IMG/VR virus record: IMGVR_UViG_2690316148_000011
Direction: 5' to 3' (one strand)
Origin: a virus
Lineage: Duplodnaviria > Heunggongvirae > Uroviricota > Caudoviricetes
DNA length: 14,327 nt
Shown here: piece after piece, positions 1-14,327 of the stretch
Layout of the letters: every line of letters starts with the position of its first letter
Position numbering within the stretch: the first letter of the stretch is position 1
Notes under the pieces: generated by a model
The model's database searches: none
What the model was told of the DNA's origin: nothing
The model's input: the letters and a program-made list of their open reading frames with translations, nothing else
Program-made: the position numbers and the translations under genes

Positions 1-32
1 ATGGTAGTGTCCGCTATTGCCAGTACACCTCA
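1..32 (+). mobile_element. Terminal 32 nt of an IS3-family insertion sequence whose body lies left of the window
   Basis: Positions 1-32 are the exact reverse complement of 2822-2853, the orfB-proximal terminus (5'-TGAGGTGTACTGGCAATAGCGGACAC) of the IS3-family element at 2822-3959. Identity stops exactly at the terminal TG/CA dinucleotide (position 33 is not the complement of 2821). Confidence 0.6.
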
Positions 33-1400: not shown

Positions 1401-1585
1401 CGCCAGCATCCTTTTTGCATCAGACGCAAACGAGCCAGCATTGAAACAATGCATATTTTATTTAATGACTCCCGTTCGTGTTTTCTCTTGTTAATGGCAT
1501 CTTCAGTAAATACCGTGTTACTGATAGTGACACCAATTTCAAAACAACCTTCAGTCGTATTAACGTTTGGTAATAACGTTTCCAT
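1397..1585 (-). CDS. Hypothetical small protein (62 aa), third cistron-linker of the Rha operon
   Basis: ATG at 1583-1585 preceded by GAGGA with about 8 nt spacing, 10 nt after the Rha stop. Its stop overlaps the next start (ATGA). No recognisable domain. Confidence 0.4.
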   Translation of the reverse strand: METLLPNVNTTEGCFEIGVTISNTVFTEDAINKRKHERESLNKICIVSMLARLRLMQKGCWR

Positions 1586-1595
1586 TATCGCGTCC

Positions 1596-2153
1596 TCAAC
1601 AATGAATTTTGAGTAATTGCTCTACAGTCATATTTTTAATTGCGCCCCGGTTAACAAGAGTCCATCCCTGTTCTTCCAGATAAAACCGGAAAGTCTCCAT
1701 GGTACAGACCCGTGCGCCATCAGGAACGGTTTCGGTGAATCTGATGTTGCCGCGTTCGTCGAAGTGAACAACCAGGGTGCGGCCATCGCCTGGAATTATT
1801 TTGTCAGTGGGTGGGGTGTTATTCTGGCGCAGTTCGGCCTCCATGCGATCGAACTCAGCAATGTAGGCTTCTTTAAATGCAGCGGCTTTTTTGCCAGTGA
1901 ATCCCATCACCAGGAAAACGAAGCCGTTTTTGGTGATTTGGTACATCGGGCGTTTTTCGCCTTTGGCGTCAGTGTAGGTGACGTCCTCAAAATTGAGGGC
2001 GTTAAATTCAGGTGAGCATTCAGTATTTGCGATGGCACGTAACACATTGTCGTGACGCTTGCCAAAGAACTCTGCGATCGCAATAGACGTAGTGACAGCG
2101 CGACCATTTTCGATGGTTACGTCAGGGTGAGAAAGGGCAGGGATAGTAGCCAT
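1596..2153 (-). CDS. Rha-family phage regulatory protein (antirepressor-like)
   Basis: N-terminal region MATIPALSHPDVTIENGRAVTTSIAIAEFFGKRHDNVLRAIANT matches the Rha N-terminal domain signature (TTS..IAE.FGK.H.NVLR). ATG at 2151-2153 preceded by GAGGA. The ORF-track start at 2450 is rejected (see noticed_but_rejected). Confidence 0.8.
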   Translation of the reverse strand: MATIPALSHPDVTIENGRAVTTSIAIAEFFGKRHDNVLRAIANTECSPEFNALNFEDVTYTDAKGEKRPMYQITKNGFVFLVMGFTGKKAAAFKEAYIAEFDRMEAELRQNNTPPTDKIIPGDGRTLVVHFDERGNIRFTETVPDGARVCTMETFRFYLEEQGWTLVNRGAIKNMTVEQLLKIHC

Positions 2154-2320
2154 GATGGCATCCTCGAGTGATAAGTTAATTAACTCACCACCGAGGTTTT
2201 CCACGACCATAAGGGTGGTGAGACGTACAGGGGTGGAAATACCGGTCATCACGGAACCCGGCCAGCCTTGCGGTTGCCCTGCACGCCCCACCATAATGCG
2301 AATGTGGCTGTGCTTAACGC

Positions 2321-2345
2321 ATAAAAAAACCGCCTGAGCGCGGTT
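2321..2345 (-). terminator. Rho-independent terminator (minus strand)
   Basis: Minus-strand AACCGC-GCUCAG-GCGGUU hairpin (6-bp stem) followed by a U7 run (plus-strand A-run 2323-2329). Confidence 0.5.
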
Positions 2346-2397
2346 ATGCGCCGTGAATGATTTCGGGTTTCCACGCCCGGCACCCGTTTTATGAGGT
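2323..2397 (-). ncRNA. Candidate ~75-nt small RNA or leader transcript upstream of the Rha antirepressor gene (c4/sar-like position); unverified
   Basis: Promoter (2405-2433) and intrinsic terminator (2321-2345) on the same strand about 75 nt apart. The hairpin stem is preserved in the paralogous copy although loop and body bases differ. A UCAC-UUCG-GUGA tetraloop hairpin lies just upstream. Confidence 0.35.
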
Positions 2398-2404
2398 GCA
2401 GGTG

Positions 2405-2433
2405 CACTATAATTCCACCCGTTCTGGTTTTCA
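2405..2433 (-). promoter_or_regulatory. Sigma70-like promoter on the minus strand (-35 TTGAAA, 17-bp spacer, -10 TATAGT)
   Basis: Plus-strand tttcaa at 2428-2433 and actata at 2405-2410, separated by 17 nt. Identical in the second copy (4125-4153). Confidence 0.4.
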
Positions 2434-2864
2434 ATAGCTACATTCAACATTTTCTCTCACCTTTCATCACCGAAGTGAATTTTGTTGATGCGGTGCCTGG
2501 TGCCTCCAGGTGACGTTAACCAGTTAACAATTACAGTTGGCTTTCCCACCCAAACCAATAAGGACTAACATGACTTTTAACTGTGCCGCGTGCGCATAGC
2601 CGCATTCACCGCATCACAAAATTCACTTTAAAAAGGGCGGACATCAGCCAGCAATTAAACCGATGCCGCCAACTGGTACTTCACACAGCAATGTCGTTAT
2701 TTACAACCGGAAGCGCACTCCCACCATTTAAATTTCACAGACAAGACCGACTCTTTATGGATACCGGAAATGCGCCTTCGTGTTGTGCCCGGTTTTATTT
2801 CACCACCTCCGGGCTTTGGTATGAGGTGTACTGGCAATAGCGGACACTACCATTTGTTCTTTTT

Positions 2865-3683
2865 TTAAGCAGCCATCTGATGATATTTTTCCCTGAAGGC
2901 TGCCGGGGAGATATTCCCCAGACGAGAGTGACAACGCTGACGATTGTAGAAAATCTCAATGTATTCCCGTATTACTGAGATGGCTTCATCCCGGTTATTA
3001 AAACGATAGTGGCTCAGGCTCTCATTTTTCAGCGTTCCCCAGAAGCTTTCCATCGGAGCGTTGTCGTAACAGTTACCTTTACGCGACATTGATGTTTTCA
3101 GACCAGACTGCTCCTGTATGACCCGGTAATCGTATGCGCAGTACTGTGAACCTCGATCAGAGTGGTGGATTAGCCCGGCAGGTGGGCGCTGGCTCCTGAG
3201 CGCCATAAACAGGGCTTTACCTGTCAGCTCTTTTGTCATGCGCTCTCCCATGGCGTAGCCGACAATTTCGCACGTATAAACATCTTTGATGCCAGCGAGG
3301 TACAACCATCCCTCCTGTGTGGCAACATACGTCAGGTCCGCCACCCAGACCTGATTTGGTGCTGTAGGAGCGAACGTCTGGTTCAGCAGATTTGGCGCAA
3401 CTGGCAGATTGTGGTTCGAGTTCGTAGTCGCTCTGAACTTGCGTTTCTGCTTACAGCGTAGCCTTAGCTCCTTACGAAGACGTGCCAGTCGGTCACGACC
3501 AACGATGATGCCATTCTCTGCCAGCTCCGTCTGGAGCCGCCGGGTTCCATATGTTTCGCGAGTGCGGATATGTGCCACCTTAATCTCCAGTTTTAGCCGC
3601 TCATCACTTTGTTTTCTGTCTGAGGGTTCATGCTGTACCCAGTTGTAATAACCGCTCCTGGATACACCAAATACCTGACACAT
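2865..3683 (-). CDS. IS3-family transposase OrfB (DDE/integrase core), probably expressed as an OrfAB fusion by -1 frameshifting
   Basis: Motifs typical of the IS3 transposase catalytic domain (LIHHSDRGSQYCAYDY, SRKGNCYDNAPMESFW). I translated the orfB frame upstream of the first ATG by hand: it stays open to the A7G slippery run (about 3764-3772) inside orfA and is the -1 frame relative to orfA. Confidence 0.85.
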   Translation of the reverse strand: MCQVFGVSRSGYYNWVQHEPSDRKQSDERLKLEIKVAHIRTRETYGTRRLQTELAENGIIVGRDRLARLRKELRLRCKQKRKFRATTNSNHNLPVAPNLLNQTFAPTAPNQVWVADLTYVATQEGWLYLAGIKDVYTCEIVGYAMGERMTKELTGKALFMALRSQRPPAGLIHHSDRGSQYCAYDYRVIQEQSGLKTSMSRKGNCYDNAPMESFWGTLKNESLSHYRFNNRDEAISVIREYIEIFYNRQRCHSRLGNISPAAFREKYHQMAA

Positions 3684-3718
3684 CGCTTCAATGGGAAATT
3701 GTTGTCGCCATTGTTCGA

Positions 3719-3959
3719 TTAACGCGTATTTTTCAGCGACTCCTGTGCAAAATACGCTGTTGCTTTTTTTAATATATCTCGCTCAAGGCGAGCTTCATTT
3801 AACGCCTTACGCAGTTGCAGAATTTCAGATTCCAGTTCAGCCACCGTGCGGGAACCAGGAGTACCGAGCCCTTTTCTGGCGGCGGTAACCCATTGTCCTA
3901 AAGTGCCTTCAGGAAGAGATAATCGGGAAGCGCCTTCACTGATCGAAAGTTGATTTTCA
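3719..3959 (-). pseudogene. IS3-family OrfA, N-terminally truncated (HTH plus leucine-zipper region retained)
   Basis: Sequence ...LSISEGASRLSLPEGTLGQWV...ELESEILQLRKALNEARLERDILKKATAYF matches the C-terminal two-thirds of IS3-family OrfA. No start codon; the ORF runs into the n at 3960. Confidence 0.7.
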
Positions 3960-3960
3960 N

Positions 3961-4403
3961 ACCGGTCATCACGGAACCCGGCCAGCCTTGCGGTTGCCCT
4001 GCACATCCCACCATAATTTGAATGGAGCTGTGCATTACGCATAAAAAAACCGCTTCAGCGCGGCTATGCGCTCGAGTAACGTTCGGGTTTCCACGCCCGG
4101 CACCCGTTTTATAAGGTGCAGGTGCACTATAATTCCACCCGTTCTGGTTTTCAATAGCTACATTCAACATTTTCTCTCACCTTTCATCACCGAAGTGAAT
4201 TTTGTTGATGCGGTGCCTGGTGCCTCCAGGTGACGTTAACCAGTTAACAATTAACGCCGGATACAGGGAAACCCATAACCACCCGATACGGGGGAACTAA
4301 TCGCTTTTTAACTGTGCCGCGTGCGCTGAGCCGCATTCACCGCATCACAAAATTCACTTTAAAAAGGGCGGACATCAGCCAGCAATGAAACTGATGCCGC
4401 CAA
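3961..4403. repeat. Copy 2 of the ~430-bp duplicated module
   Basis: Aligns with 2241-2672 at a constant offset of 1720 for the first ~280 bp, then a divergent patch, then a second conserved block. Confidence 0.9.
4043..4117 (-). ncRNA. Second copy of the candidate small RNA; no downstream antirepressor gene because the truncated IS abuts it
   Basis: Same promoter hexamers (4125-4153) and a hairpin AGCCGC-GCUGAA-GCGGUU plus U-run at 4043-4065. Relative to copy 1 the changes fall in the loop and convert an A-U pair to G-U. Confidence 0.3.
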
Positions 4404-4601
4404 AGGTACCAATCAACATGGAGTGTTGTGGCGTGGTTGTCACTTAAGCGTATGGTCAACCTGACAACCCGGTGTCCTCAACGGGGAAGGAATAACTCCG
4501 CCATACTTACCGCCGCGTCATTTCGCGTTGTGTGCCTGCTTTTAACCACGTCAGGCGAGGTGGTATCCTTCTTATCCCGAATAACCAAGAAGGAAATCTA
4601 T

Positions 4602-4802
4602 ATGACTAAAGAAGAATTTGTCTCTTATATTTTTGATAAAACGGTTGAAATGTATGCCGCTACTTACGGGTCCTGTAATCCTCTGAATAAACCAGAGGGA
4701 AAAGATGATTTCGACAAAATTTACCGCTTCTTGGAGGACCGCTATATCAAAAGCTTAGAGGACGCAGGGATCAAATCCCCAGTGAAGTCACCATTGTCCT
4801 GA
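4602..4802 (+). CDS. Hypothetical small protein (66 aa)
   Basis: ATG at 4602 preceded by AAGGA with 7 nt spacing; AT-rich; its 3' end overlaps the convergent 125-aa ORF by about 30 nt. No recognisable domain. Confidence 0.45.
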   Translation: MTKEEFVSYIFDKTVEMYAATYGSCNPLNKPEGKDDFDKIYRFLEDRYIKSLEDAGIKSPVKSPLS

Positions 4803-5148
4803 GAACTTGCAGAACGTCATGATCATAACTTCCATCCAAACCGCGACGGCGAATTGCTTCTCGTATTACCGGAAGCAGTTCGCTGGAAATCTCGGTGCAT
4901 ATTTCACCTGATAATACGCTTGGCTCAAGTGAGAATATTGGTGAACTTACGGTCTTGGTCTCGACAGTTTCAGAGTCAGTGCCAACATTATAAAGCTCAA
5001 CGAAAGCGGTCTTGATTTTCCGGGCCAGATCTTTTGCTGGCTCGCTTGCAATATCTTTCCCGATTTCTCGCAGCACAGAATGCAATGTATGAGCTGCTGT
5101 TTTCTGTACATCAGACGGTAAATCTTTAAATTCCATCGTCAGCCTCAT
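4771..5148 (-). CDS. Hypothetical protein (125 aa), second gene of a leftward PL-position operon
   Basis: Start ATG overlaps the stop of the upstream small ORF (TGATG); AT-rich relative to flanking DNA. No recognisable domain. Confidence 0.55.
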   Translation of the reverse strand: MRLTMEFKDLPSDVQKTAAHTLHSVLREIGKDIASEPAKDLARKIKTAFVELYNVGTDSETVETKTVSSPIFSLEPSVLSGEICTEISSELLPVIREAIRRRGLDGSYDHDVLQVLRTMVTSLGI

Positions 5149-5300
5149 CAGTCAGTGTTTCTGGCTAACCAGCAACGCGCGCCAGATTCGGTTTTAAACG
5201 TTTTGCTTTTGGTATACGTCATGGCGGTAAACGTTCCATCCTGGTTAGGGAACACGCCGCACACCAGAGATTCGTTGTTGCCAAGATCGATAGTATCCAT
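5148..5300 (-). CDS. Hypothetical small protein (about 50 aa), first gene of the leftward PL-position operon
   Basis: ATG at 5298-5300 preceded by GGGGA with about 12 nt spacing. The ORF-track version begins further upstream at 5354. Confidence 0.4.
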   Translation of the reverse strand: MDTIDLGNNESLVCGVFPNQDGTFTAMTYTKSKTFKTESGARCWLARNTD

Positions 5301-5479
5301 GCTGACCTCATTTCCCCTTAACGCCGGGGTGGCGGAACAAAAAACCTGCTGCATAGTTAAAGATTGAACCCTGCCGTCATGTTCTTACGCCTCGGGCTGG
5401 CTACTTAACCCCTGACCACTGTCTGGTAACTCGAAGTATTGCCCTGCATTCTGTGGGGCGGGGTGGGTTGACGCCTGAA

Positions 5480-5522
5480 AAAATAGCATCATTATTTTTT
5501 GATGTAAATAGCATCGCTATTG
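5480..5522 (-). promoter_or_regulatory. OL-like region: two 17-bp operator-like palindromes (5481-5497, 5506-5522) overlapping a leftward sigma70-like promoter
   Basis: AAATAGCATCATTATTT and AAATAGCATCGCTATTG, centres 25 bp apart; minus-strand -35 TTTACA (plus 5503-5508) and -10 TATTTT (plus 5480-5485) with 17-nt spacer. Confidence 0.5.
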
Positions 5523-5535
5523 TTTTTGTTGGGGC

Positions 5536-5560
5536 AAGAAAAAACCACCCTAAGGTGGTT
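5536..5560 (-). terminator. Rho-independent terminator downstream of the ParE-like gene (minus strand)
   Basis: Minus-strand AACCACC-UUAG-GGUGGUU hairpin (7-bp stem) followed by UUUUUUCUU, 17 nt after the toxin stop codon. Confidence 0.55.
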
Positions 5561-5576
5561 CTGTCGGCGGGAATAA

Positions 5577-5867
5577 TTAACTGTTTTTGCCTGGATACTG
5601 TCTTCGAGAATGCACAATATTTACTACTTCTATGCTTGATGCTGTTACTCGGTAAAGGATGATGTAGTTAGGATGAGTTACAATTTCACGAAGACCAAGA
5701 ACTCGCTCGCTTGGAGGATACAGGTAAGGATGCTCTGTGAGCGGCAAAACGGATGTTTCAATTCGAATTTTCATTCTGCGTGCTGCCGCGGGATTTTCTT
5801 TAGCTATGTAGGCTACGATCTGGCGCAAATCATCACGAGCAGATGGTAGCCATAAAACGGGTAACAT
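5577..5867 (-). CDS. ParE/RelE-family type II toxin (ParE2-like)
   Basis: 96-aa protein with ParE/RelE-like N-terminus (MLPVLWLPSARDDLRQIVAYI) and C-terminus (IILYRVTASSIEVVNIVHSRRQYP); start overlaps the antitoxin stop (TAATG). Confidence 0.85.
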   Translation of the reverse strand: MLPVLWLPSARDDLRQIVAYIAKENPAAARRMKIRIETSVLPLTEHPYLYPPSERVLGLREIVTHPNYIILYRVTASSIEVVNIVHSRRQYPGKNS

Positions 5868-6061
5868 TATTCACCTCTGTGAGTTGCAGCAGCAATTTGG
5901 GCAATAATTTGTTCCATTTCCGCCATTACCTCATCATGCGGAATCGCCGGGCGGGGATCCGCGAGGCTTGCTGCTACTTTGGCCCGCAGCCATTCGTTGT
6001 AACTATTTTCTTGCTCAACTGTCTCAAATTCTGAAACCATTGGGGAAAGGACTGTACTCAT
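5867..6061 (-). CDS. Small antitoxin, PaaA2-like
   Basis: 64-aa acidic protein immediately upstream of, and translationally coupled to, the ParE-like gene; AGGAG RBS 9 nt upstream. N-terminal SPMVSEFETVEQENSYNEWLRAKVAASLADPRPAIPHDEV resembles the PaaA2 antitoxin of E. coli O157 as I recall it. Confidence 0.75.
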   Translation of the reverse strand: MSTVLSPMVSEFETVEQENSYNEWLRAKVAASLADPRPAIPHDEVMAEMEQIIAQIAAATHRGE

Positions 6062-6080
6062 TTTACATATCTCCTCTGAT

Positions 6081-6581
6081 TTAGGCGCGACGGCCTTTTT
6101 GTGCAGCTAACCACCGCGCAACCGTACGATCCATTGATTCTTTTTTATCTTTCATCTCCTGAAGCATGTGTTCTTGATCTTCTTTCGGAAAAGCTCTGAA
6201 CGTATGGATTAAATCTCGTTCCATCGGCTCTACGGCAAACGGTAGTTCATCCTCTGTTTGTTCTGTGTCTGCTGGTAATGCGACTATGTTATCTTGCTGT
6301 GGTTCTCGACAATACATCCTTGCAATTTGCAGCAAATCTACCATGTCTGGCCTGATTGACTCAGGGGGAACTTTCAGTAAGCCAGCAAACTTTAGAACAG
6401 CCTCAAGGTTTAGTGGGGTTTGACCATTTAGGTAGTGACTTACCGCCCCTTGTGTTGAAAACCCCATAATTTCCGCCGCACGTTCCTGAGTCAATCCCAA
6501 CTGAGATTTCTTTGCCATCCAGATTTCTTTCAGTCTTCTGGCGGCGTTGAGGTCGGTGTCTGACAATGATTTTCTTTTCAT
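6081..6581 (-). CDS. HTH (XRE/cI-like) transcriptional repressor, PaaR2/RacR-like; probable prophage immunity repressor
   Basis: HTH motif LTQERAAEIMGFSTQGAVSHYLNG; no peptidase S24 domain; first gene of the repressor-antitoxin-toxin operon; divergent from a Cro-like gene across an operator-bearing intergenic region. The ORF-track start at 6611 is GTG without an SD, so ATG 6579-6581 was chosen. Confidence 0.75.
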   Translation of the reverse strand: MKRKSLSDTDLNAARRLKEIWMAKKSQLGLTQERAAEIMGFSTQGAVSHYLNGQTPLNLEAVLKFAGLLKVPPESIRPDMVDLLQIARMYCREPQQDNIVALPADTEQTEDELPFAVEPMERDLIHTFRAFPKEDQEHMLQEMKDKKESMDRTVARWLAAQKGRRA

Positions 6582-6615
6582 ACATCCAATTCTAATAAGA
6601 TTGCTAATCACTTTG

Positions 6616-6657
6616 AAATAGCATCACTATTTACTTTTAAAAATAACAGTGCTATTA
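6616..6657. promoter_or_regulatory. OR-like region: two operator-like palindromes (6616-6632; inverted degenerate copy 6641-6657) between the divergent repressor and Cro-like genes
   Basis: AAATAGCATCACTATTT (perfect 6-bp arms) and, on the other strand, AATAGCACTGTTATTTT; centres 25 bp apart, the same spacing as the OL-like pair. Promoter hexamers are only weakly recognisable (for example TTTACT ... ATTAAT). Confidence 0.5.
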
Positions 6658-6692
6658 ATTATGCATTGGTAACACATCACATAGGGCGGATT

Positions 6693-6956
6693 ATGAATCT
6701 TGGAGAATATTTGCATCATTTTCATATAACCCAGAGTTCATTTGCTGAGATTGTTGGCGCATCCCAAGGGATGGTCAGCCACGTTATAACGGGGCGTGCA
6801 AAACTTACAGGAGAAAAAATATTACGTTGGTGTGAAGCAACGGGATGGGTGGTGACCCCACATGAGATTGACAGTAAAACCTACCCCAACCCAACTGACG
6901 GCTTGCCTGCTGAGTTTCAGGCTAACACACAACCATCGGCGGGGGTTGATTCATGA
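6693..6956 (+). CDS. Cro-like HTH regulator (YdaS family)
   Basis: 87-aa protein with HTH (SQGMVSHVITGRAKLTGEKILRW); ATG at 6693 with AGGG RBS; divergent from the repressor; overlaps the next gene (ATGA). Confidence 0.7.
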   Translation: MNLGEYLHHFHITQSSFAEIVGASQGMVSHVITGRAKLTGEKILRWCEATGWVVTPHEIDSKTYPNPTDGLPAEFQANTQPSAGVDS

Positions 6957-7378
6957 AAATCAAGCATGAACACATCCGCATGGCGATGAAAGCCTGGGCG
7001 CATCCGGACGGTGAAAAAGTTCCGGCAGCTGAAATAACCAGGGTTTATTTCGAACTGGGAATGACGTTTCCGGTTCTGCATAACGACAGCAAGCACAACA
7101 CGCTTTATCTCAACACCCAAAAGATTTTCCGTTGGCTGGATAAAGACACCCCTGACGCTGTTGAAAAAATTCAGGCGTTGTTACCTGCGATCGAAAGGGC
7201 AATGCCACCTCCGCTGGTGGCTCGAATGCGCAGCCACAGTTCAGCTTATTTTCGGGAACTGGTGGAGACGCATGAACGACTGGTGAGAGACGCTGATGAT
7301 TTTGTCGCAGTGGCAATCGCCGGTTTCAATCAGATGAACCGTGGTGGCCCGGCAGGAAATGCTGTGGCAGTACATTGA
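6953..7378 (+). CDS. YdaT-like protein (Rac-type early-region protein, reported as toxic in Rac)
   Basis: 141 aa, N-terminus MKIKHEHI...; position directly downstream of the Cro/YdaS-like gene matches the Rac racR-ydaS-ydaT arrangement. Family assignment is from memory of that locus. Confidence 0.55.
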   Translation: MKIKHEHIRMAMKAWAHPDGEKVPAAEITRVYFELGMTFPVLHNDSKHNTLYLNTQKIFRWLDKDTPDAVEKIQALLPAIERAMPPPLVARMRSHSSAYFRELVETHERLVRDADDFVAVAIAGFNQMNRGGPAGNAVAVH

Positions 7379-7449
7379 CTGACAATAGCCATATCGAATC
7401 GCTCCCGGCAACTCGTGAGTAAAAAGATTCGGTATCAGAAGAGGTGAGT

Positions 7450-8514
7450 ATGGCTAACGCCTGGCTCAGATTATGGCATGACATGCCAAATGACCCTAAG
7501 TGGCGAACAATTGCCAGGGTGTCAGGGCAGCCAATTGCAACAGTGATGGCAGTGTATATCCACCTCCTGGTGAGCGCGTCACGAAATGTCACGCGAGGTC
7601 ACATTGATGTCACGACAGAAGATTTGGCAAGTGCGCTCGACGTGACAGAAGAGGTAATTGATTCAATTTTGCAGACGATGCAGGGGCGGGTACTTGATGG
7701 TGATTTAATCACTGGATGGGAAAAACGCCAGGTGCTTAAAGAGGACAACGGCAATATTTCGCAAACCGCAAAATCTCCTGCAGAGCGCAAGAGGGCGCAG
7801 CGAGAGAGGGAAAGAAAGCGGGAACAAAATGGCGATTGTCACGGCGCGTCACGAAATGTCACGCACATGTCACGACGAGTCACGACAGATACAGATAAAG
7901 ATACAGATAAAGAAGATCAAAACACTATGGTCCATGGCGTAAAAAACGCCACGAACCAGGCAGGGGATGTTCAGACCGTCAATCCTGGTCAGCCAGCAGG
8001 CTCGACACCGGAAGCCGATTCAGCGTATGCGCTGAAAGCCGATTCGGGCGCTGTGCAGCAGGTGATGACCGCAAGGCCGGAGCAATCACTCCAACTGCAG
8101 CAGCCTGAAGCCGATTCCGCCATTCAGCGGGAAGCCGATCGGGTAGCCCCGGAAAACACCGGGCAGCCTGTGGGACGAGTGGATTATCCGGATGTGTTCG
8201 AACAGGTCTGGCGGGAATACCCGTTGCGTGCCGGGGCAAACCCGAAGAAATCCGCATTCAGTGCCTGGAAGGCCAGATTGCGCGAGGGGGTGCCACCAGA
8301 GACCATGCTGGATGGTGTGAGGCGTTACGCGAGATACCTGGCGGCGACCGGGAAAGCGGGAACGGAATTTGTTCAGCGAGCGACGACGTTTTTTGGGCCG
8401 GACCGGAATTTTGAAAACCCCTGGTTGCTCCCGGTAAGCGGCACGAACAACCAGCGTTGTGTGAATCATATTTCTGAACCGGATACCGAAATTCCGCCGG
8501 GATTCAGGGGGTGA
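7450..8514 (+). CDS. Phage replication initiation protein (lambda O-like / YdaU-like replisome organiser)
   Basis: ATG at 7450 with AGAGGTGAG RBS; contains two iteron clusters within its coding sequence (as ori-lambda lies within O); C-terminal region YPDVFEQVWREYPLRAGANPKKSAFSAWKARL resembles phage replication-protein C-terminal domains; followed immediately by the DnaC-like gene. Confidence 0.6.
   Translation: MANAWLRLWHDMPNDPKWRTIARVSGQPIATVMAVYIHLLVSASRNVTRGHIDVTTEDLASALDVTEEVIDSILQTMQGRVLDGDLITGWEKRQVLKEDNGNISQTAKSPAERKRAQRERERKREQNGDCHGASRNVTHMSRRVTTDTDKDTDKEDQNTMVHGVKNATNQAGDVQTVNPGQPAGSTPEADSAYALKADSGAVQQVMTARPEQSLQLQQPEADSAIQREADRVAPENTGQPVGRVDYPDVFEQVWREYPLRAGANPKKSAFSAWKARLREGVPPETMLDGVRRYARYLAATGKAGTEFVQRATTFFGPDRNFENPWLLPVSGTNNQRCVNHISEPDTEIPPGFRG
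7578..7614. repeat. Iteron cluster A: four GTCAC(G/A) repeats phased at 10-11 bp
   Basis: GTCACG at 7578, 7588, 7609 and GTCACA at 7598. Confidence 0.6.
7838..7912. repeat. Iteron cluster B: five GTCACG repeats phased at 10-11 bp, followed by a tandem ATACAGATAAAG x2; candidate replication origin
   Basis: GTCACG at 7838, 7848, 7858, 7869, 7879. The 19-mer gcgtcacgaaatgtcacgc is shared exactly with cluster A. Tandem 12-mer at 7889-7912. Confidence 0.6.
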
Positions 8515-8520
8515 TGTGGC

Positions 8521-9267
8521 ATGAAAAACATTGCGGCAGCCGGGGTTCTTGAACGTATTCACAGACTTGCACCACAGGGGGCGGTTCCACCGTACCGGAC
8601 GGTGGAGGAGTGGCGGGAATGGCAACTTGCTGAAGGACGAAAACGCAGCGAGGAGATTAACCGCCAGAATCGCCAGTTGCGGGTGGAAAAAATCCTGAAT
8701 CGTTCGGGCATCCAGCCTCTGCACAGCAAATGCTCGTTTGCGAATTATCAGGTGCAGAACGACGGGCAAAAATACGCGCTGAGCCAGGCCAAATCCATAG
8801 CTGACGAACTGATGACCGGGTGCACGAATTTTGTGTTCAGCGGTAAAACCGGCACCGGGAAAAATCACCTTGCAGCGGCGATGGGTAACTGGCTGATGGC
8901 GAAGGGGCGCAGCGTGATTATCGTCACCGTGTCTGATGTCATGAGCGTGTTGCATGACAGCTACGACAACGGCAAATCCGGTGAAAAATTTTTACAGGAG
9001 CTTTGCGGGGTTGATTTGCTGGTCCTGGATGAAATAGGCATTCAGCGGGAGACGAAAAACGAGCAGGTGGTATTGCACCAGATAATTGATCGCCGGACAG
9101 CATCACTGTGCAGTGTCGGGATGTTAACAAACCTGAATCATGCCGCAATGAGCACGCTTCTTGGTGAGAGGATTATGGACCGCATGACCATGAACGGTTG
9201 TCGGTGGGTGACGTTTAACTGGGATAGCTGGCGTTCAAATGTCAGCTTTCCGGGAGTTGTGAAGTAA
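8521..9267 (+). CDS. DnaC-like replicative helicase loader (IstB-like AAA+ ATPase; YdaV-like)
   Basis: Walker A GKTGTGKNHLAAAM and Walker B LLVLDEIG; 248 aa; positioned directly after the O-like gene. Confidence 0.85.
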   Translation: MKNIAAAGVLERIHRLAPQGAVPPYRTVEEWREWQLAEGRKRSEEINRQNRQLRVEKILNRSGIQPLHSKCSFANYQVQNDGQKYALSQAKSIADELMTGCTNFVFSGKTGTGKNHLAAAMGNWLMAKGRSVIIVTVSDVMSVLHDSYDNGKSGEKFLQELCGVDLLVLDEIGIQRETKNEQVVLHQIIDRRTASLCSVGMLTNLNHAAMSTLLGERIMDRMTMNGCRWVTFNWDSWRSNVSFPGVVK

Positions 9268-9288
9268 TTTTTGTTGGAGGATGTTTTA

Positions 9289-10014
9289 ATGGAAACTGTA
9301 TTTGACGCACTGAAAGCACTGAAAAGAGCCTCTTCACATGTGGTGGCGTCCCGCCTTGGAATCAGCCGTGAAGATGCGGTCAACGAACTGTGGAAACTGA
9401 AGCGCCGTGGTGAAGCGGATAACAAGGGTTCGATGTGGTGGCTGATTCAGGCTGGTGAAAGTGAACCAGTGTCACCGGTACCGAAAGTGACAGCGCAAAT
9501 GCTGACTGAGGCGATTGAACAACATGGCCCACAAACGGCGGATGAGCTGGCACTGATGTTCGGGATTACCTCCCGCCGGGCGAATTCATCGCTGGCCATG
9601 GCAATCAGCAAAGGGCGTCTGATTCGCGTGAATCAGGGCGGTAAATTTCGGTACTGCATACCGGGCGCTGATTTACCGGCAGAGCCGAAAGCCGCATCCA
9701 TAGCGGAAACGGATGGTAAAGTCTTTCCTCAGCCAGCAGGTGTTGCGTTACCGGTACAGGAAGCTGCAACACAGGAAGAAATTAAAACAGAAACTGTGGC
9801 GGACATTGTGCAGTCGTTGCCATCGTTCACCGAAACGCAAGCGGATGACCTGGTTTTACCATCGCTGCATATGGCAAACCGCGAACTGCGTCGGGCGAAA
9901 AGTCATGTCCAGAAGTGGGAGCGTGTCTGCGCCGCGTTGCGGGAGCTGAACAAGCACCGGGATATTGTTCGACAGATTGTCGATTCCTCCGGTCGTATTG
10001 TGTCGGAAAAGTGA
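9289..10014 (+). CDS. Hypothetical phage protein (241 aa), possibly with two winged-helix-like segments
   Basis: ATG at 9289 preceded by GGAGGA with 7 nt spacing (the ORF-track start at 9271 is TTG); protein-like composition. No confident family. Confidence 0.55.
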
Positions 10015-10029
10015 TTGCCGGGGGCGCTT

Positions 10030-10452
10030 ATGGCAAAAGTATTTACACAGGAAGAGCGGGAAAAAATTAAGGGGCAGGTTGTTGAACTCGTACGCCAGAG
10101 TGGGCGCGAGACGTTACGACAACTGGAAGCTAAAACCGGGGCGACAAGATATTTAATAAGCGTTCTCGCCAGAGAGCTGGTTGCCAGTGGGGATGTATAC
10201 AACTCTGGCTACGGGTTATTCCCGTCTGAACAGGCTCGTAAGGACTGGCAAAACGCCCGCAAAAAACTCTCGAGGGCAAAGCTGAAGAAACCATCTGTGG
10301 TTGATCCGGACCTTATCTGGTCATTACCAGACGGAGAAATACGCCGCTACGACAGACATCAGAACATAATCTGTCGCGAGTGCCGGAAGAGTGAAGTTAT
10401 GCAGCGTGTACCGGCTTTCTATCAGGGTGATTTTCAGGAGGCGGTACTGTGA
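10030..10452 (+). CDS. Hypothetical phage protein (140 aa)
   Basis: ATG at 10030 (the ORF-track start at 10015 is TTG); tightly packed in the rightward operon. No recognisable domain. Confidence 0.5.
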   Translation: MAKVFTQEEREKIKGQVVELVRQSGRETLRQLEAKTGATRYLISVLARELVASGDVYNSGYGLFPSEQARKDWQNARKKLSRAKLKKPSVVDPDLIWSLPDGEIRRYDRHQNIICRECRKSEVMQRVPAFYQGDFQEAVL

Positions 10453-10509
10453 GTGAAATTAGCTATCAGGCTTCAATTACCGCTGGCATTCGCATCAAAG
10501 GAGAGGAGC

Positions 10510-11019
10510 ATGGAAATAAAACCAGAAGATGAGTTAAGCAATATTGTTTTATTTCCGGTAAAAGAGGATAACCCTCGTAATCAGGTTAATTTTCTTTATG
10601 AGCCATCGGAAAGACCATATTGCCATCACGCTTCTGTCCGGGTTGACGAAAAAGAGCGTCAGGTCCGCTGTAAAATNNNNNNNNNNNNNNNNNNNNNNNN
10701 NNNNNNNNNNNNNNNNNNNNNNNNNNNNNNNNNNNNNNNNNNNNNNNNNNNNNNNNNNNNNNNNNNNNNNNNNNNNNNNNNNNNNNNNNNNNNNNNNNNN
10801 NNNNNNNNNNNNNNNNNNNNNNNNNNNNNNNNNNNNNNNNNNNNNNNNNNNTTTGACTGGATGCTCTCTGTGGCGAAAAGAGAAACCAGACTGGCAGATG
10901 ATGTAAGGCTCTTGCGCCAGGAGGAGCGGGAAAGGCGAAAAAATATAGAAAAGCTAATCCAGATTGAGCGTAATGCGAAAGCGCGGATACGCAGGGTGAC
11001 AAAATATAGCCCCGAATAA
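10510..11019 (+). CDS. Hypothetical protein interrupted by an N run; possible Cys/His-containing N-terminal segment
   Basis: ATG at 10510 preceded by AAGGAGAGGAG. The 175-nt N run (10677-10851) is not a multiple of 3, so frame continuity across it is unknown. C-terminal part is charged and coiled-coil-like. Confidence 0.4.
   Translation: MEIKPEDELSNIVLFPVKEDNPRNQVNFLYEPSERPYCHHASVRVDEKERQVRCKXXXXXXXXXXXXXXXXXXXXXXXXXXXXXXXXXXXXXXXXXXXXXXXXXXXXXXXXXXXFDWMLSVAKRETRLADDVRLLRQEERERRKNIEKLIQIERNAKARIRRVTKYSPE
10677..10851. other. Run of 175 N (assembly gap or masked sequence)
   Basis: Literal n characters. Confidence 1.
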
Positions 11020-11158
11020 TCAAGGTTATTTCTGGAAGTCAAGTCGTGAGTGATGAGGACTAACAAATACGGTGAACTCGATAAAGAGATTCAGGACGAA
11101 CTGGAGGCCAGGAATGATTGACAAATCACCAAGTGAGTTCAGCTACAAAGATTTATTG

Positions 11159-11174
11159 TCATAACGGGTTATGA
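11159..11174. promoter_or_regulatory. Perfect 7-bp inverted repeat with 2-bp spacer (TCATAAC-GG-GTTATGA) about 60 bp upstream of the methyltransferase gene; candidate operator
   Basis: Read directly from the sequence; overlaps a weak promoter-like stretch (TTATGA ... TGaTATTCT). The loop is too tight for an RNA hairpin, so a protein-binding site is more likely. Confidence 0.3.
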
Positions 11175-11233
11175 GATCGACTTGGTGCGTGATATTCTTC
11201 GGGCCAGTTTGCTATGCGCCACCATGAGATGTT

Positions 11234-13066
11234 ATGGCCCGCATGTTTGATACATTAGGATTTTACATTATGAATGTGCAACATTTTGATTTTTTTACAG
11301 ATAATGAGTTTTCTAATCTGGAAAGATATCAAACTTGTAAAGCCATGGCCAAAGGTTATGCGGGCAATTACAAAACCGGGCAGTCAAGGTTGATGCATGC
11401 CCGCTCATACTGCTTCAGCATCGTAGCTGCATATTGGGATACCCTTGCAAAAAAGCAAAAAAGCAGCATTAAAATGAGGGCAGTACCGCACACTGTTTAC
11501 ATAGAAGACATTCCATGTGATGCACGCGAGCTCGCTGAACGAACAGGTGAGCTTATTGCTCAATTTCCGGCGGAGGACGCTGGATATCTGATTGGGTCAA
11601 TTTATACGGTAATGCTGCCATCCGCTTACCGTTCGGAATTGGGGGCTTACTATACCCCCCCACCTTTGGTAGCGCGTCTCTTGGACCTGGCTGAAAAGTC
11701 TGGTGTTGATTTTTCTCATGCATCGGTTATTGATCCTGCGTGTGGTGGCGGTGCATTTTTGGCACCAGTAGCCATTCGAATGTTAAAAAAAGACAAGGGG
11801 TCTTCCCCTGAATGGATGTTGAGGAGAATCAGTCGTCGTTTAAAGGGGATAGAAATCGATCCATTTGCGGCTTGGATGAGTTTGGTATTGCTCGAATCTG
11901 TACTAATGCCACTATGTGTAAAGGTAAAACGTAGATTGCCTGAAGATACAATTATTGTTGCTGATGCGCTTCAGCAAGATAAATTTTCTGGTTATGATCT
12001 TGTGGTAGGGAATCCGCCTTACGGACGTGTCACTCTCGATATTAAAACGAGAGAAAAATATTCTCGTTCGTTATTTGGTCATGCAAATCTATATGGATTG
12101 TTCACCGACTTAGCTGTTCGCATGGTTAAAGAGAAAACAGGAGTTATTGCATTTCTTACGCCAACTTCTTTTCTTGGTGGGCAGTATTTCACCGCGCTGC
12201 GAACCCTTTTGACCGAAAAAACTACTCCGTATGCCCTTGATTTCGTCACTGACAGGGATGGGGTCTTTGACGATGTTCTCCAGGAAACAATGTTGACAGC
12301 ATTCAAGGCGGGAGAACATAAAGTTCGGGCCCAGGTATCCTCACTTGTCCCTAAGGGGTTGAACAAAGCAAAAATTGAGAAAATAGGTAATGTTGATATA
12401 GAAAAAGGTGGAGCAACGTGGCTTTTGCCACGCGTTAAAGATGATGCCTGTTTTCTTAATGTATTAAAACAGATGTCTACGCGTTTAGCTGATCTGGGAT
12501 ACTCAGTCTCTACAGGTCAGTTAGTCTGGAATCGATTTAAGTCGCAGTTGCGTACGACGAAAGGAAAAAATAGCTACCCATTAGTCTGGGCGGAATCAAT
12601 AACTTCAGCTGGTTTTCGTTTTAGTGCAGACAGAAAAAATCATGTTCCCTATATCGATATAACCCCACAACAGGGTTTCCTTGTGACAAAATCTGAATGT
12701 GTGCTTGTTCAGCGGACAACATCGAAGGAACAGGACAGAAGGATTTTAGCGGCAATTTTACCTCAGGGATTTATAGATGAAACTGGTGGCGTAGTAGTTG
12801 AAAACCATATTAATATTGTATATTCAAACGGATTGTTCTCTGCGGTTCGCCCTGATGTTATTGATATGCTACTTAATTCGCATGTTGTCGATCGGGCGTT
12901 CAGGTGTATAAGCGGAAGTGTTGCTGTTTCGGCCTATGAATTGAATTCAATCCCGTTGCCTTCTCTGGAGCAGGTGATGGAGATTCAATCGTTAATTGAT
13001 GCTGGCGTCCACAGACGGATTATTGAGAGAACTATCGCTGGTTTCTATGGAGTGATGATTGCATGA
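11234..13066 (+). CDS. N6-adenine DNA methyltransferase, gamma-class (motif I before motif IV), Type II R-M modification subunit
   Basis: Motif X/I YYTPPPLVARLLDLA ... VIDPACGGGAFL followed by motif IV VVGNPPYGRV; long C-terminal region consistent with a target-recognition domain. AT-rich compared with the prophage core. Start uncertain: ATG 11234 (weak SD) or ATG 11269 (AGGA upstream). Confidence 0.85.
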   Translation: MARMFDTLGFYIMNVQHFDFFTDNEFSNLERYQTCKAMAKGYAGNYKTGQSRLMHARSYCFSIVAAYWDTLAKKQKSSIKMRAVPHTVYIEDIPCDARELAERTGELIAQFPAEDAGYLIGSIYTVMLPSAYRSELGAYYTPPPLVARLLDLAEKSGVDFSHASVIDPACGGGAFLAPVAIRMLKKDKGSSPEWMLRRISRRLKGIEIDPFAAWMSLVLLESVLMPLCVKVKRRLPEDTIIVADALQQDKFSGYDLVVGNPPYGRVTLDIKTREKYSRSLFGHANLYGLFTDLAVRMVKEKTGVIAFLTPTSFLGGQYFTALRTLLTEKTTPYALDFVTDRDGVFDDVLQETMLTAFKAGEHKVRAQVSSLVPKGLNKAKIEKIGNVDIEKGGATWLLPRVKDDACFLNVLKQMSTRLADLGYSVSTGQLVWNRFKSQLRTTKGKNSYPLVWAESITSAGFRFSADRKNHVPYIDITPQQGFLVTKSECVLVQRTTSKEQDRRILAAILPQGFIDETGGVVVENHINIVYSNGLFSAVRPDVIDMLLNSHVVDRAFRCISGSVAVSAYELNSIPLPSLEQVMEIQSLIDAGVHRRIIERTIAGFYGVMIA

Positions 13067-14145
13067 ATCTGCCTGTTGTTCCCCCATTGAATGTTATCCG
13101 GGAAAGATTACAATTAATTTTCCCTGAAGGGACTGAGAATCGTGGATATTTAATTCGGGAAATAGCTGCAAAAACAATTTTTGTCATGTTTTATGCTGGT
13201 GCGGTTGAGGGGCTGGGGCGATGGATAAGGCCCAGCCAGGTTGTAAGTATGGGAGATTCGCAGGCTGCTCTTACTGATGATGCGTCCAGAGAAAGCTGGG
13301 TAAAGATGACTTTCTCTAAACAAAAGATAAGGCCTGCTGATGCATGGTATGCGGAAAATACGCGTGAGCCAATACGTGATGAAACTATAAAAAATGGCCT
13401 AATACCTTGCAATGCAATTGTTGAGCGTAAAGGTATACCCACCACATCCTCTCGTCCTCGTTACAGTTTGAATCGCTCTTTTGCAGCACTCTTTGATGCC
13501 GGGCTTGAAGGAGATTCGCTGCTGAGTGCAATAAGTTCCTGGCAAGAAAATCATTTGAACAAAGCCGCTCTTGCTAGGTTGCGTTTATTGAAATCAGGGG
13601 CAGTGATTGCTGCTGATGCCGTAGTCGTCACTTTCCCAAATGGAGAGAAGAGAACTTTAGCTCCGGGCCCGTCAAGTACAATAGCTAAGGCCGTCATCGA
13701 AGTTTTTGCTCCTAATTTTCTTAAGAATCCAACTGTGCTCTGGTTGTCTGAATCCGGGAATAAAGTTGTTGCTCAGGATGATGTATTGGCAAAAGCATTG
13801 GGGCTGAATATTGATGCCTCAAAAGCACTTCCAGATATTATTTTGATTGATTTGGGAGAGGACCGAACGGGTTCGGACATGCTTGTAGTTTTCACTGAAG
13901 TAGTTGCGACAGATGGGCCTATAAACAGGGAACGAAAAGTTACTCTCACTCATTTGGCTATTGACGCTGGGTTCAGCGAGAAAAATCTTGCATTCCTTAC
14001 GGCATTTATGGACAGAAGTGCTCTGCCTTTTAAAAAGGCAATACCAGAATTGGCGTGGGGATCTTATGCATGGTTTGCTTCTGAACCGGAGCACTTAATT
14101 GATCTTCGGGATGGTTATCCGGTAAAGATCAGCCAGAGAAAATGA
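13063..14145 (+). CDS. Putative restriction endonuclease partner of the methyltransferase (possibly BsuBI/PstI-like; unverified)
   Basis: 360-aa ORF whose ATG overlaps the methyltransferase stop (ATGA) with GGAG upstream; same AT-rich composition; size and position typical of a Type II endonuclease. No catalytic motif could be assigned confidently by eye. Confidence 0.5.
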   Translation: MNLPVVPPLNVIRERLQLIFPEGTENRGYLIREIAAKTIFVMFYAGAVEGLGRWIRPSQVVSMGDSQAALTDDASRESWVKMTFSKQKIRPADAWYAENTREPIRDETIKNGLIPCNAIVERKGIPTTSSRPRYSLNRSFAALFDAGLEGDSLLSAISSWQENHLNKAALARLRLLKSGAVIAADAVVVTFPNGEKRTLAPGPSSTIAKAVIEVFAPNFLKNPTVLWLSESGNKVVAQDDVLAKALGLNIDASKALPDIILIDLGEDRTGSDMLVVFTEVVATDGPINRERKVTLTHLAIDAGFSEKNLAFLTAFMDRSALPFKKAIPELAWGSYAWFASEPEHLIDLRDGYPVKISQRK

Positions 14146-14297
14146 CCAAAGTTTGATATCCGCCACGCCCTGAAGGATGGGGGTTTTACGGTGCACTGGA
14201 TAAAAAATCGGTTTCATAGATTTGCCCACCGTGGTATACGCCTGCGATAAAAACTTTATTGTCATCAACGGCAAAAGCAATAATTGTTCTGTGGCGG

Positions 14298-14327
14298 GGT
14301 GATGCTGCCAACTTACTGATTTAGTGT
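14298..14327 (+). mobile_element. IS1: First 30 nt of the IS1 left terminal inverted repeat (element continues beyond the window end)
   Basis: GGTGATGCTGCCAACTTACTGATTTAGTGT matches the canonical IS1 end as I recall it. Confidence 0.75.

Follow-up and report, generated by a model that had tools for sequence, protein, structure and literature searches.

What is the markedly AT-rich gene pair that lies between the replication genes of a Shigella sonnei lambdoid prophage and an insertion element at their right, and what would it do for its host? The 14,327-nucleotide stretch of DNA analysed here, hereafter the window, carries it at positions 11159-14145. The pair is an intact, ordinary two-gene restriction-modification (RM) system, an adenine methylase followed by a PstI/BsuBI-family nuclease whose target is most likely CTGCAG. 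We consider it very probable that it forms a complete, functional-looking and orthodox Type IIP RM operon of the PstI/BsuBI/SdaI family, within an XorKII/XphI-like subfamily, carried as a 3.0-kb moron at the junction of the replication module and the nin/Q region. The features on which this reading turns are the following.

11159-11174, no strand assigned: 16-bp inverted repeat TCATAAC-GG-GTTATGA at the left edge of the cassette
11160-11269, plus strand: conserved non-coding leader, delimited by alignment with relatives
11190-11198, plus strand: candidate extended -10 element of the M-R operon, TGaTATTCT, proposed from its conservation
11270-13066, plus strand: gamma-class N6-adenine DNA methyltransferase, 598 aa, assigned from Pfam, PADLOC, AF2 fold and motifs
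13063-13066, plus strand: ATGA stop/start overlap of methylase and nuclease, read from the sequence and preceded by GGAG at 13049-13052
13063-14145, plus strand: BsuBI/PstI-family Type IIP restriction endonuclease, 360 aa, assigned from Pfam, PADLOC and the match to SdaI
14186-14296, minus strand: truncated ParE/RelE toxin gene, of which the IS1 insertion leaves the last 36 codons (3' end); it neighbours the RM cassette without belonging to it
14298-14327, no strand assigned: terminal inverted repeat GGTGATGCTGCCAACTTACTGATTTAGTGT of an element that we take to be IS1; the window ends inside it

The identity of the 360-aa protein, for which the original prediction had offered an endonuclease, with a PstI/BsuBI type as a guess, was settled by the HMM search. 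The protein consists of an N-terminal winged-helix DNA-binding domain and a C-terminal nuclease domain of the PD-(D/E)XK-variant type; it matches PF17728 over residues 10-172 (1.2e-30, 106.6 bits against a cutoff of 27), PF06616 (9.3e-45) and the PADLOC REase_II model PDLC03589 (2.8e-128). Of the solved structures, SdaI (2ixs) alone matches the protein significantly, both in sequence (1.8e-16) and in a Foldseek search of the PDB with the AF2 model of the protein (pLDDT 79.8), in which 2ixs_A was the single significant match (E 8e-16, probability 1.00, 359 columns). The residues P257-D258, E279-x-V281, G285-P286 and K234 are invariant in this nuclease, SdaI and the EcoGIII-type nuclease, that is across three clades, as is the segment Y96-A97...R101-E102..R105. 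Migration of the active-site lysine is documented in the SdaI subfamily (PMC2441816), and we infer that K234 is such a relocated lysine. The marks of the BsuBI/PstI/SdaI family, namely the PF17728 and PF06616 domains, an SdaI-equivalent fold and an adjacent N6-adenine methyltransferase, are all present.

The gene upstream is indeed the gamma-class N6-adenine methyltransferase that had been proposed. Motif I, DPACGGGAFL (11732-11761), precedes motif IV, NPPYG (12011-12025), which is the gamma-class order; the protein matches Eco57I (1.7e-13) and N6_Mtase (2.1e-09) in Pfam and, end to end, the PADLOC Type II MTase model PDLC03338 (3e-299). Its AF2 model (pLDDT 87, pTM 0.85) finds its best PDB folds in CamA, M.BseCI and M.TaqI, aligning throughout its length with the first two (E 1e-19 to 1e-17) and with M.TaqI in the core. 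The protein conforms to the gamma-class (TaqI/CamA/BseCI-like) enzymes, whose marks are the motif order X-I-...-IV, a target-recognition domain at the C-terminus and a monomeric TaqI-like fold. The N-terminus was considered as an autoregulatory HTH and rejected as such, since in the alignment it corresponds to the helical N-terminal region of CamA and M.BseCI. Neither ORF is truncated, and all of the conserved catalytic and SAM-binding residues are retained. The methylase ORF that begins at 11234 (11234-13066, plus strand, 610 aa) is open only in the Shigella/E. coli copy, which owes the longer frame to a single additional base; in Klebsiella, Citrobacter and Kluyvera, the homologues have 598 aa and the upstream ATG falls in another frame. 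Alignment with these relatives therefore places the conserved start at the ATG at 11270, and the 610-aa reading is an artefact of the extra base.

Translational coupling through ATGA, another element of the original prediction, is found as described. The overlap is kept in Klebsiella, Citrobacter and Kluyvera, and in 77 of 80 genome loci the end of the methylase homologue and the beginning of the nuclease gene lie no more than a few bases apart.

With respect to its origin, the pair was thought to be an AT-rich defence moron acquired horizontally and bounded on its right by IS1. The first part of this holds well. The cassette (11159-14145) has a GC content of 43.7%, the replication genes (7444-10452) have 53.2% and positions 1-11158 have 49.0%; comparison with relatives shows sharp edges of homology at about 11103-11160 and at 14138-14150. 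Copies with a DNA identity of 76-83% occupy the identical slot of lambdoid prophages in E. coli, Klebsiella, Citrobacter and Kluyvera; the pair is a cassette that has moved horizontally and keeps one place in such prophages across several genera. The dN/dS values (0.05-0.06 for the methylase, 0.05-0.07 for the nuclease) point to strong purifying selection on both genes. What the pair encodes, the family of the two proteins, their intactness, the coupling, the mobility of the cassette and the purifying selection can all be established directly from these data. The IS1 boundary has to be abandoned. A 40-bp spacer and the parE remnant separate the nuclease gene from the element, which is presumably IS1 to judge by its terminal repeat from 14298, and alignment with IS1-free relatives breaks off at 14297. 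The remnant, which has a Pfam ParE_toxin match, translates to the C-terminus of a 103-aa ParE of E. coli FDAARGOS_943, and it is parE, not the RM cassette, that is interrupted by IS1. Moreover, IS1 is irrelevant to the acquisition, because IS1-free prophages have the cassette at the same position. The last 30-60 bases of the window also match many unrelated E. coli sites and one phage.

The exact S. sonnei proteins are present in more than 1000 S. sonnei contigs, and a published PADLOC survey counted 982 Type II systems across 994 S. sonnei genomes (PMC13293514). Of the 5426 complete genomes of E. coli, only 2 have the cassette. At an identity of at least 60%, the subfamily occurs in 32 IMG/VR contigs and in none of 50,697 isolated phage genome records. 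The cassette is already annotated in public databases, RefSeq naming the nuclease as BsuBI/PstI family and PADLOC having dedicated models for both proteins, and it represents no new type of system.

The leader of the operon is strikingly well conserved, being 92-95% identical to those of Klebsiella and Kluyvera as against 80-83% for the coding DNA, and among the relatives it contains the indels that disrupt the frame of the upstream ATG. A structured RNA was considered for this segment and rejected: it has no Rfam match, its fold is unexceptional (z = -0.98 against shuffles) and covariation is absent. A standard -35/-10 scan found no canonical sigma-70 promoter in the leader. In 16 of 19 non-redundant leaders (methylase at least 64% identical) that are otherwise unalignable, a TGnTAT(T/C)CT element lies 57-71 nt 5' of the methylase start, a motif that by itself is fairly common (the window has 3, with 0.77 expected). 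The extended -10 element at 11190-11198, conserved in this way, is the likelier promoter. As originally noted, there is no C-protein gene, nor indeed any further ORF, either between the two genes or upstream inside the conserved cassette, and the combination of a small HTH controller and a C-box operator that marks C-protein-controlled RM systems is not found; the genes 5' of the cassette vary by host and are mutually unrelated.

Three other ways of reading parts of this locus deserve consideration, and one concerns the 16-bp palindrome, for which a regulatory role had been suggested. The repeat does exist, 60 bp before the ATG at 11234, and it might act as an operator through the methylase itself or a host factor; lying at the left edge of the leader, with its centre about 30 bp 5' of the candidate -10, it would be placed like an operator in a -35 region. 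Nevertheless, the window holds 7 comparable inverted repeats against 4.1 +/- 2.2 in shuffles, which is within chance expectation; the left arm has one mismatch in Klebsiella and two in Citrobacter with no compensating change in the right arm; leaders at a greater distance retain the -10 element but not the repeat; and the methylase model shows no additional HTH domain, its N-terminus aligning with the helical part of CamA and M.BseCI. The palindrome is probably no operator, and we regard such a role as highly improbable. A somewhat stronger, if still rather unlikely, alternative is that the system is a PstI-family relative reading another site, either one in which the central TGCA and the 3'-overhang geometry are kept and the outer bases differ (for example ATGCAT, as for NsiI) or a different palindrome. 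The identity to the EcoGIII/PstI-type enzymes that read CTGCAG is only 25-27%, too low for their specificity to be transferred from the Stx-phage EcoGIII system, and this route was rejected. SdaI, of the same fold family, reads CCTGCAGG. Avoidance of sites gives no help to CTGCAG either. When observed/expected ratios under a maximal-order Markov model were calculated for all 64 six-base palindromes in 1.3 Mb of flanks from 80 subfamily-carrying genomes and in 78 non-redundant cassettes, in both cases without control genomes, CTGCAG was undepleted (0.89 in flanks, 1.1 in cassettes), ATGCAT was mildly low (0.62-0.86) and CTCGAG was lowest (0.42 and 0.28), this last only at alpha-proteobacterial loci, the enteric flanks being unaffected. 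Against another site stands the likeness to a chromosomal unit of Xanthomonas oryzae (L126), which encodes a methylase of 603 aa and a nuclease of 364 aa between inverted repeats of 65 nt with a complementarity of 92%. The S. sonnei nuclease shares 55% identity with its counterpart there over the full length (7e-135) and the methylase 47% (1e-176), and the putative recognition segment YAxN(T/S)REPxRDET is nearly the same in both nucleases. This unit matches XorKII by its fit to the published description of the repeats, rather than by the KACC10331 sequence itself; in PMC2853133, which cites Moon et al. 2008, the unit of that strain is given 60/65 repeats and the recognition sequence CTGCAG. 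An identity of 55% makes a shared specificity likely and falls short of proof. By this analogy, which lends it indirect experimental support, the specificity is most likely CTGCAG, now on a better foundation than the first guess. The window contains three such sites, at 1292, 7778 and 8095, the second of which had been overlooked.

The remaining alternative, that the S. sonnei cassette is unexpressed or in decay, the cryptic relic of an IS-ridden defective prophage that has lost both restriction and methylation, seems to us unlikely, though less so than either of the preceding two. The prophage has certainly suffered insertions (at 2865-4042 by a member of the IS3 family, in parE by IS1), the leader shows no canonical promoter, and S. 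sonnei is so clonal that more than a thousand identical contigs say little about selection within the species. Yet both reading frames are complete with their catalytic and SAM-binding residues, and the leader with its extended -10 is intact and identical to those of the E. coli copies; a cell with an active nuclease and an inactive methylase would die, and an inactive nuclease should accumulate lesions. The complete and functional-looking operon remains our preferred reading. The bolder extension of it, that the cassette functions in virtually every S. sonnei, unlike the situation in nearly all E. coli, with every genomic CTGCAG methylated and unmodified DNA restricted, and so constitutes a lineage-wide, prophage-borne barrier to gene flow controlled without a C protein by the extended -10 of the leader and translational coupling, we rate at about even chances. 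Such an active cassette might, by analogy with the RM system of the O104:H4 Stx phage, also modify gene expression epigenetically. The literature contained no methylome, cleavage or enzymology report on the S. sonnei system that we could find.

If the operon works as its sequence suggests, transcription would start from the short conserved leader at the extended -10 element, co-directionally with the phage early-right operon, and the 598-aa gamma-class methylase would be made first. Since the start of the nuclease gene overlaps the methylase stop, synthesis of the nuclease would be coupled to that of the methylase, probably at a lower level, and this coupling may be the safeguard that substitutes for a C protein. 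The product of the methylase would most likely be N6-methyladenine in CTGCAG. The nuclease would bind DNA via its N-terminal winged helix and its C-terminal domain would cut unmodified sites, most likely as CTGCA^G to leave 3' TGCA ends. A lysogen expressing the pair would restrict incoming unmodified phage or plasmid DNA, and loss of the prophage would be penalised. The consequences are modest: an active system would explain part of the barrier of S. sonnei to transformation and phages, and would add an m6A motif to its methylome. This would be of practical interest for the engineering or typing of S. sonnei, for instance with regard to resistance of the genomic DNA to PstI or the pre-methylation of plasmids.

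Among the known systems, the closest are XorKII and XphI of Xanthomonas, which belong to the same subfamily and share with the S. sonnei pair a methylase of about 600 aa, a nuclease of about 360 aa, the overlapping M-then-R order and the PADLOC models PDLC03338 and PDLC03589, the latter matched end to end by the Xanthomonas nuclease with 848 bits; the same 90% methylase cluster includes a protein annotated as "methyltransferase homolog M.XphI". They differ in their carriers. In X. oryzae the carrier is a transposon-like unit with 65-bp inverted repeats, and in X. phaseoli a conjugative plasmid, where an RHH gene overlaps the methylase start, whereas the S. sonnei cassette rides as a moron in a lambdoid prophage and lacks a small regulator gene. 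The subfamily is a clear case of one RM type using three kinds of vehicle, namely a moron of a lambdoid prophage, a plasmid capable of conjugation and a transposon-like unit. More distant is the EcoGIII-type CTGCAG system of the Stx2 phages of E. coli O104:H4 and O145:H28 (PMC3893438), which is homologous over almost its full length (methylase 25% over 363 aa, nuclease 26% over 276 aa). It too is prophage-borne in E. coli, with M-then-R order and an overlapping stop/start, and, as with PstI and BsuBI, it has the two Pfam nuclease domains and a gamma-class methylase with an Eco57I-type catalytic domain. These enzymes nevertheless do not share the PADLOC models; relative to the EcoGIII type, the S. 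sonnei methylase is about 110 aa longer at its N-terminus (598 against 489 aa) and the nuclease is 43 aa longer, and the EcoGIII-type genes adjoin cI in the Stx phages whereas the S. sonnei pair lies downstream of the replication genes. Finally, SdaI (2ixs) has the same two-domain layout of wHTH and nuclease, the PD...ExV variant and a lysine supplied from elsewhere (PMC2441816), but it is only 22-26% identical, reads an 8-bp site and orients its domains differently from our model (TM 0.39-0.44).

The stretch is part of a lambdoid prophage of Shigella sonnei, and more than 1000 contigs with S. sonnei in their name match both proteins of the cassette at 100% of residues. The features that concern us are:

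5577-6061, minus strand: a second, intact ParE-type toxin-antitoxin pair, beside 6081-6611
7444-10452: replication genes, GC 53.2%
upstream of the cassette: HTH repressor-like, Cro-like and YdaT-family genes; replisome-organiser and DnaC/IstB-like ATPase genes; DUF1627 and DUF977 genes
11159-14145, plus strand: the cassette, GC 43.7%
11234-13066, plus strand: methylase ORF as called
13063-14145, plus strand (that of the methylase): nuclease ORF as called
14186-14296, minus strand: parE toxin gene, of which only the last 36 codons lie on this side

The original prediction took the 360-aa ORF for an endonuclease and guessed at a PstI/BsuBI type, and profile searches place the protein in exactly this nuclease family. 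Both BsuBI/PstI-family Pfam domains score well over threshold (HTH 1.2e-30, nuclease 9.3e-45) and the PADLOC model PDLC03589 matches at 2.8e-128. Among solved structures SdaI alone matches significantly (2ixs; sequence 1.8e-16, Foldseek E 8e-16); beyond it, a Foldseek search of the nuclease model against solved structures gave no chain under E 0.1. In an alignment that included SdaI, the Stx2-phage CTGCAG nuclease and members of its own clade, no variation is seen at P257-D258, E279-x-V281, G285-P286 and K234, or at Y96-A97..R101-E102..R105 in the DNA-binding domain. The nuclease lacks the canonical lysine after the glutamate, as is known for the SdaI subfamily, where this lysine has been relocated (PMC2441816).

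The methylase is equally clear, with motifs (DPACGGGAFL at 11732-11761, NPPYG at 12011-12025, the gamma-class order), Pfam matches (Eco57I 1.7e-13, N6_Mtase 2.1e-09), the fold and a dedicated PADLOC Type II methyltransferase model (PDLC03338, end to end, 3e-299) all agreeing with the gamma-class N6-adenine methyltransferase read from the sequence. A confident AlphaFold model made from 37 homologues (pLDDT 87, pTM 0.85) superposes over its full length on CamA and M.BseCI, both gamma-class adenine methyltransferases, and over the core only on M.TaqI. By this full-length alignment the N-terminal 110 residues belong to the helical N-terminal part of the CamA/M.BseCI enzyme type and do not form an added DNA-binding regulator domain. 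Nearly all homologues are 598 aa long. One base is extra in the Shigella/E. coli copy, and for this reason the upstream ATG of the Klebsiella, Citrobacter and Kluyvera copies does not share the reading frame. The conserved start is therefore 11270, which is preceded by AGGA, and the 610-aa reading frame is spurious, a product of that extra base.

Comparative data show the pair to be a mobile cassette that occupies one fixed slot in prophages. Among 5426 complete E. coli genomes just 2 have it, each at 99% identity and at the same prophage position, with an intact parE/parD toxin-antitoxin pair after it. At 76-83% DNA identity it is also present in prophages of Klebsiella, Citrobacter and Kluyvera, between replication genes on one side and a DinI/DUF968/RusA/Q region on the other. 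Homology begins at 11103-11160 and ends at 14138-14150, with unrelated flanks; these sharp edges and the shared slot in other genera bear out the proposed horizontal acquisition, as the GC contents do the greater AT-richness relative to the prophage core. A dN/dS of 0.05-0.07 for both genes, with dS of at least 1, points to strong purifying selection. More widely, nucleases of the subfamily (the XorKII/XphI-like relatives) are spread at 50-89% identity over alpha-, beta- and gamma-proteobacteria; they also turn up on 88 plasmids, most of them conjugative, and on 32 contigs of IMG/VR. At 77 of 80 genome loci the end of the methylase homologue lies no more than a few bases from where the nuclease starts.

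On the right, contrary to what had been proposed, IS1 does not bound the pair: the nuclease stop is followed by 40 bp and then by the parE remnant, which encodes exactly the C-terminal end of the 103-aa ParE found in an IS1-free E. coli relative. The alignment with that relative ends at 14297, and from 14298 on (14298-14327) comes the IS1 terminal repeat. IS1 thus inactivated a neighbouring toxin gene, hitting the parE of the same parDE pair that follows the cassette in IS1-free relatives, and, lying off the cassette, is unrelated to its acquisition. In the other toxin-antitoxin pair (5577-6061) the toxin is ParE (PF05016, 1.8e-17) and the antitoxin PaaA2 (PF21217, 3e-23); with the adjoining HTH repressor-like gene, the layout resembles paaR2-paaA2-parE2 of E. 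coli prophages. Elsewhere, an IS3-family element (2865-4042, minus strand; rve integrase core, 8.8e-26) separates the gene of an Ash/Rha regulator from a near-copy, about 70 aa long, of its N-terminal part (1596-2450, 3898-4170), pointing to rearrangement or to a second, truncated copy. Several ORFs, among them the gene directly upstream of the cassette, are broken by stretches of N, masked or unresolved (991-1266, 3960, 10677-10851).

How is the nuclease controlled? The predicted absence of a C-protein gene holds for both the cassette and the region upstream, where the genes vary with the host and are unrelated. The 16-bp palindrome at the left edge is real, but its proposed operator role finds no favour: the window has 7 comparable repeats where shuffles have 4.1 +/- 2.2, the left arm is changed without compensation in Klebsiella and Citrobacter, and more distant leaders lack it. 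Most plausibly the nuclease is controlled by translational coupling; the ATGA in which the two ORFs overlap was read correctly and is retained in all four genera. The 110-nt non-coding leader (11160-11269) is better conserved between genera than coding DNA (92-95% versus 80-83%). Within it TGaTATTCT (11190-11198) is a candidate extended -10 promoter; it recurs as TGnTAT(T/C)CT, by itself not a rare sequence: of 19 non-redundant leaders, which reach down to 64% methylase identity and are otherwise unalignable, 16 have it 57-71 nt ahead of the methylase start. A standard two-hexamer promoter scan of the leader gave no match, and a search for RNA structure there found no support.

With respect to specificity, site avoidance gave the suggested CTGCAG no support (observed/expected 0.89 in 1.3 Mb of flanks of compared loci L003-L082 and 1.1 in 78 non-redundant methylase-nuclease cassettes of L003-L124, counted without control genomes). 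The most depleted six-base palindrome in these counts, likewise without control genomes, was CTCGAG (0.42 in flanks, 0.28 in cassettes), a depletion that is mainly alpha-proteobacterial (0.39) and absent from enteric prophage flanks. The EcoGIII-type CTGCAG system of Stx2 prophages (PMC3893438) has homologues of both genes, arranged in the same order, but at only 25-27% identity, so its specificity cannot be carried over.

Xanthomonas relatives are more informative. XphI is a PstI isoschizomer. The 364-aa nuclease of a X. phaseoli plasmid fits PDLC03589 (364 positions) end to end with 848 bits, about twice the S. sonnei score, and clustering at 90% identity groups this plasmid pair with X. oryzae pv. 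oryzae proteins encoded on the chromosome, including a methylase annotated "methyltransferase homolog M.XphI". In the copy on this plasmid, pA (L125), a ribbon-helix-helix gene, possibly a small regulator, overlaps the methylase start (2023-2217), whereas enteric prophage copies lack it. The X. oryzae chromosomal pair (L126; methylase 603 aa, nuclease 364 aa) lies between lipoyl-synthase (Pfam LIAS_N/Radical_SAM) and tail-specific protease (TSP_NTD/PDZ/Peptidase_S41) genes, bracketed by 65-nt inverted repeats, 92% complementary (4762-4826, 7938-8002), and by AGTGAGTG direct repeats, as a transposon-like unit with no transposase gene inside. It matches, through the published description rather than the KACC10331 sequence, the transposon-like Type II XorKII unit of KACC10331 (65-bp repeats, 60/65 identity, 8-bp duplication), whose recognition sequence is given as CTGCAG with reference to the characterisation of XorKII (PMC2853133). 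Given the identity of the S. sonnei proteins to this X. oryzae pair (nuclease 55% over 352 residues, methylase 47% over 559) and an almost unchanged putative recognition segment, the S. sonnei system quite probably also recognises CTGCAG.

No experimental study of the S. sonnei enzyme turned up in our literature search. A published survey of 994 S. sonnei genomes tallied 982 Type II systems and remarked on their uniformity (PMC13293514); it does not itself identify them, and presumably most are the system described here. RefSeq already names the nuclease a "BsuBI/PstI family type II restriction endonuclease" and PADLOC detects both proteins; with kind, family and probable specificity all known, the finding is an ordinary one, correctly interpreted.
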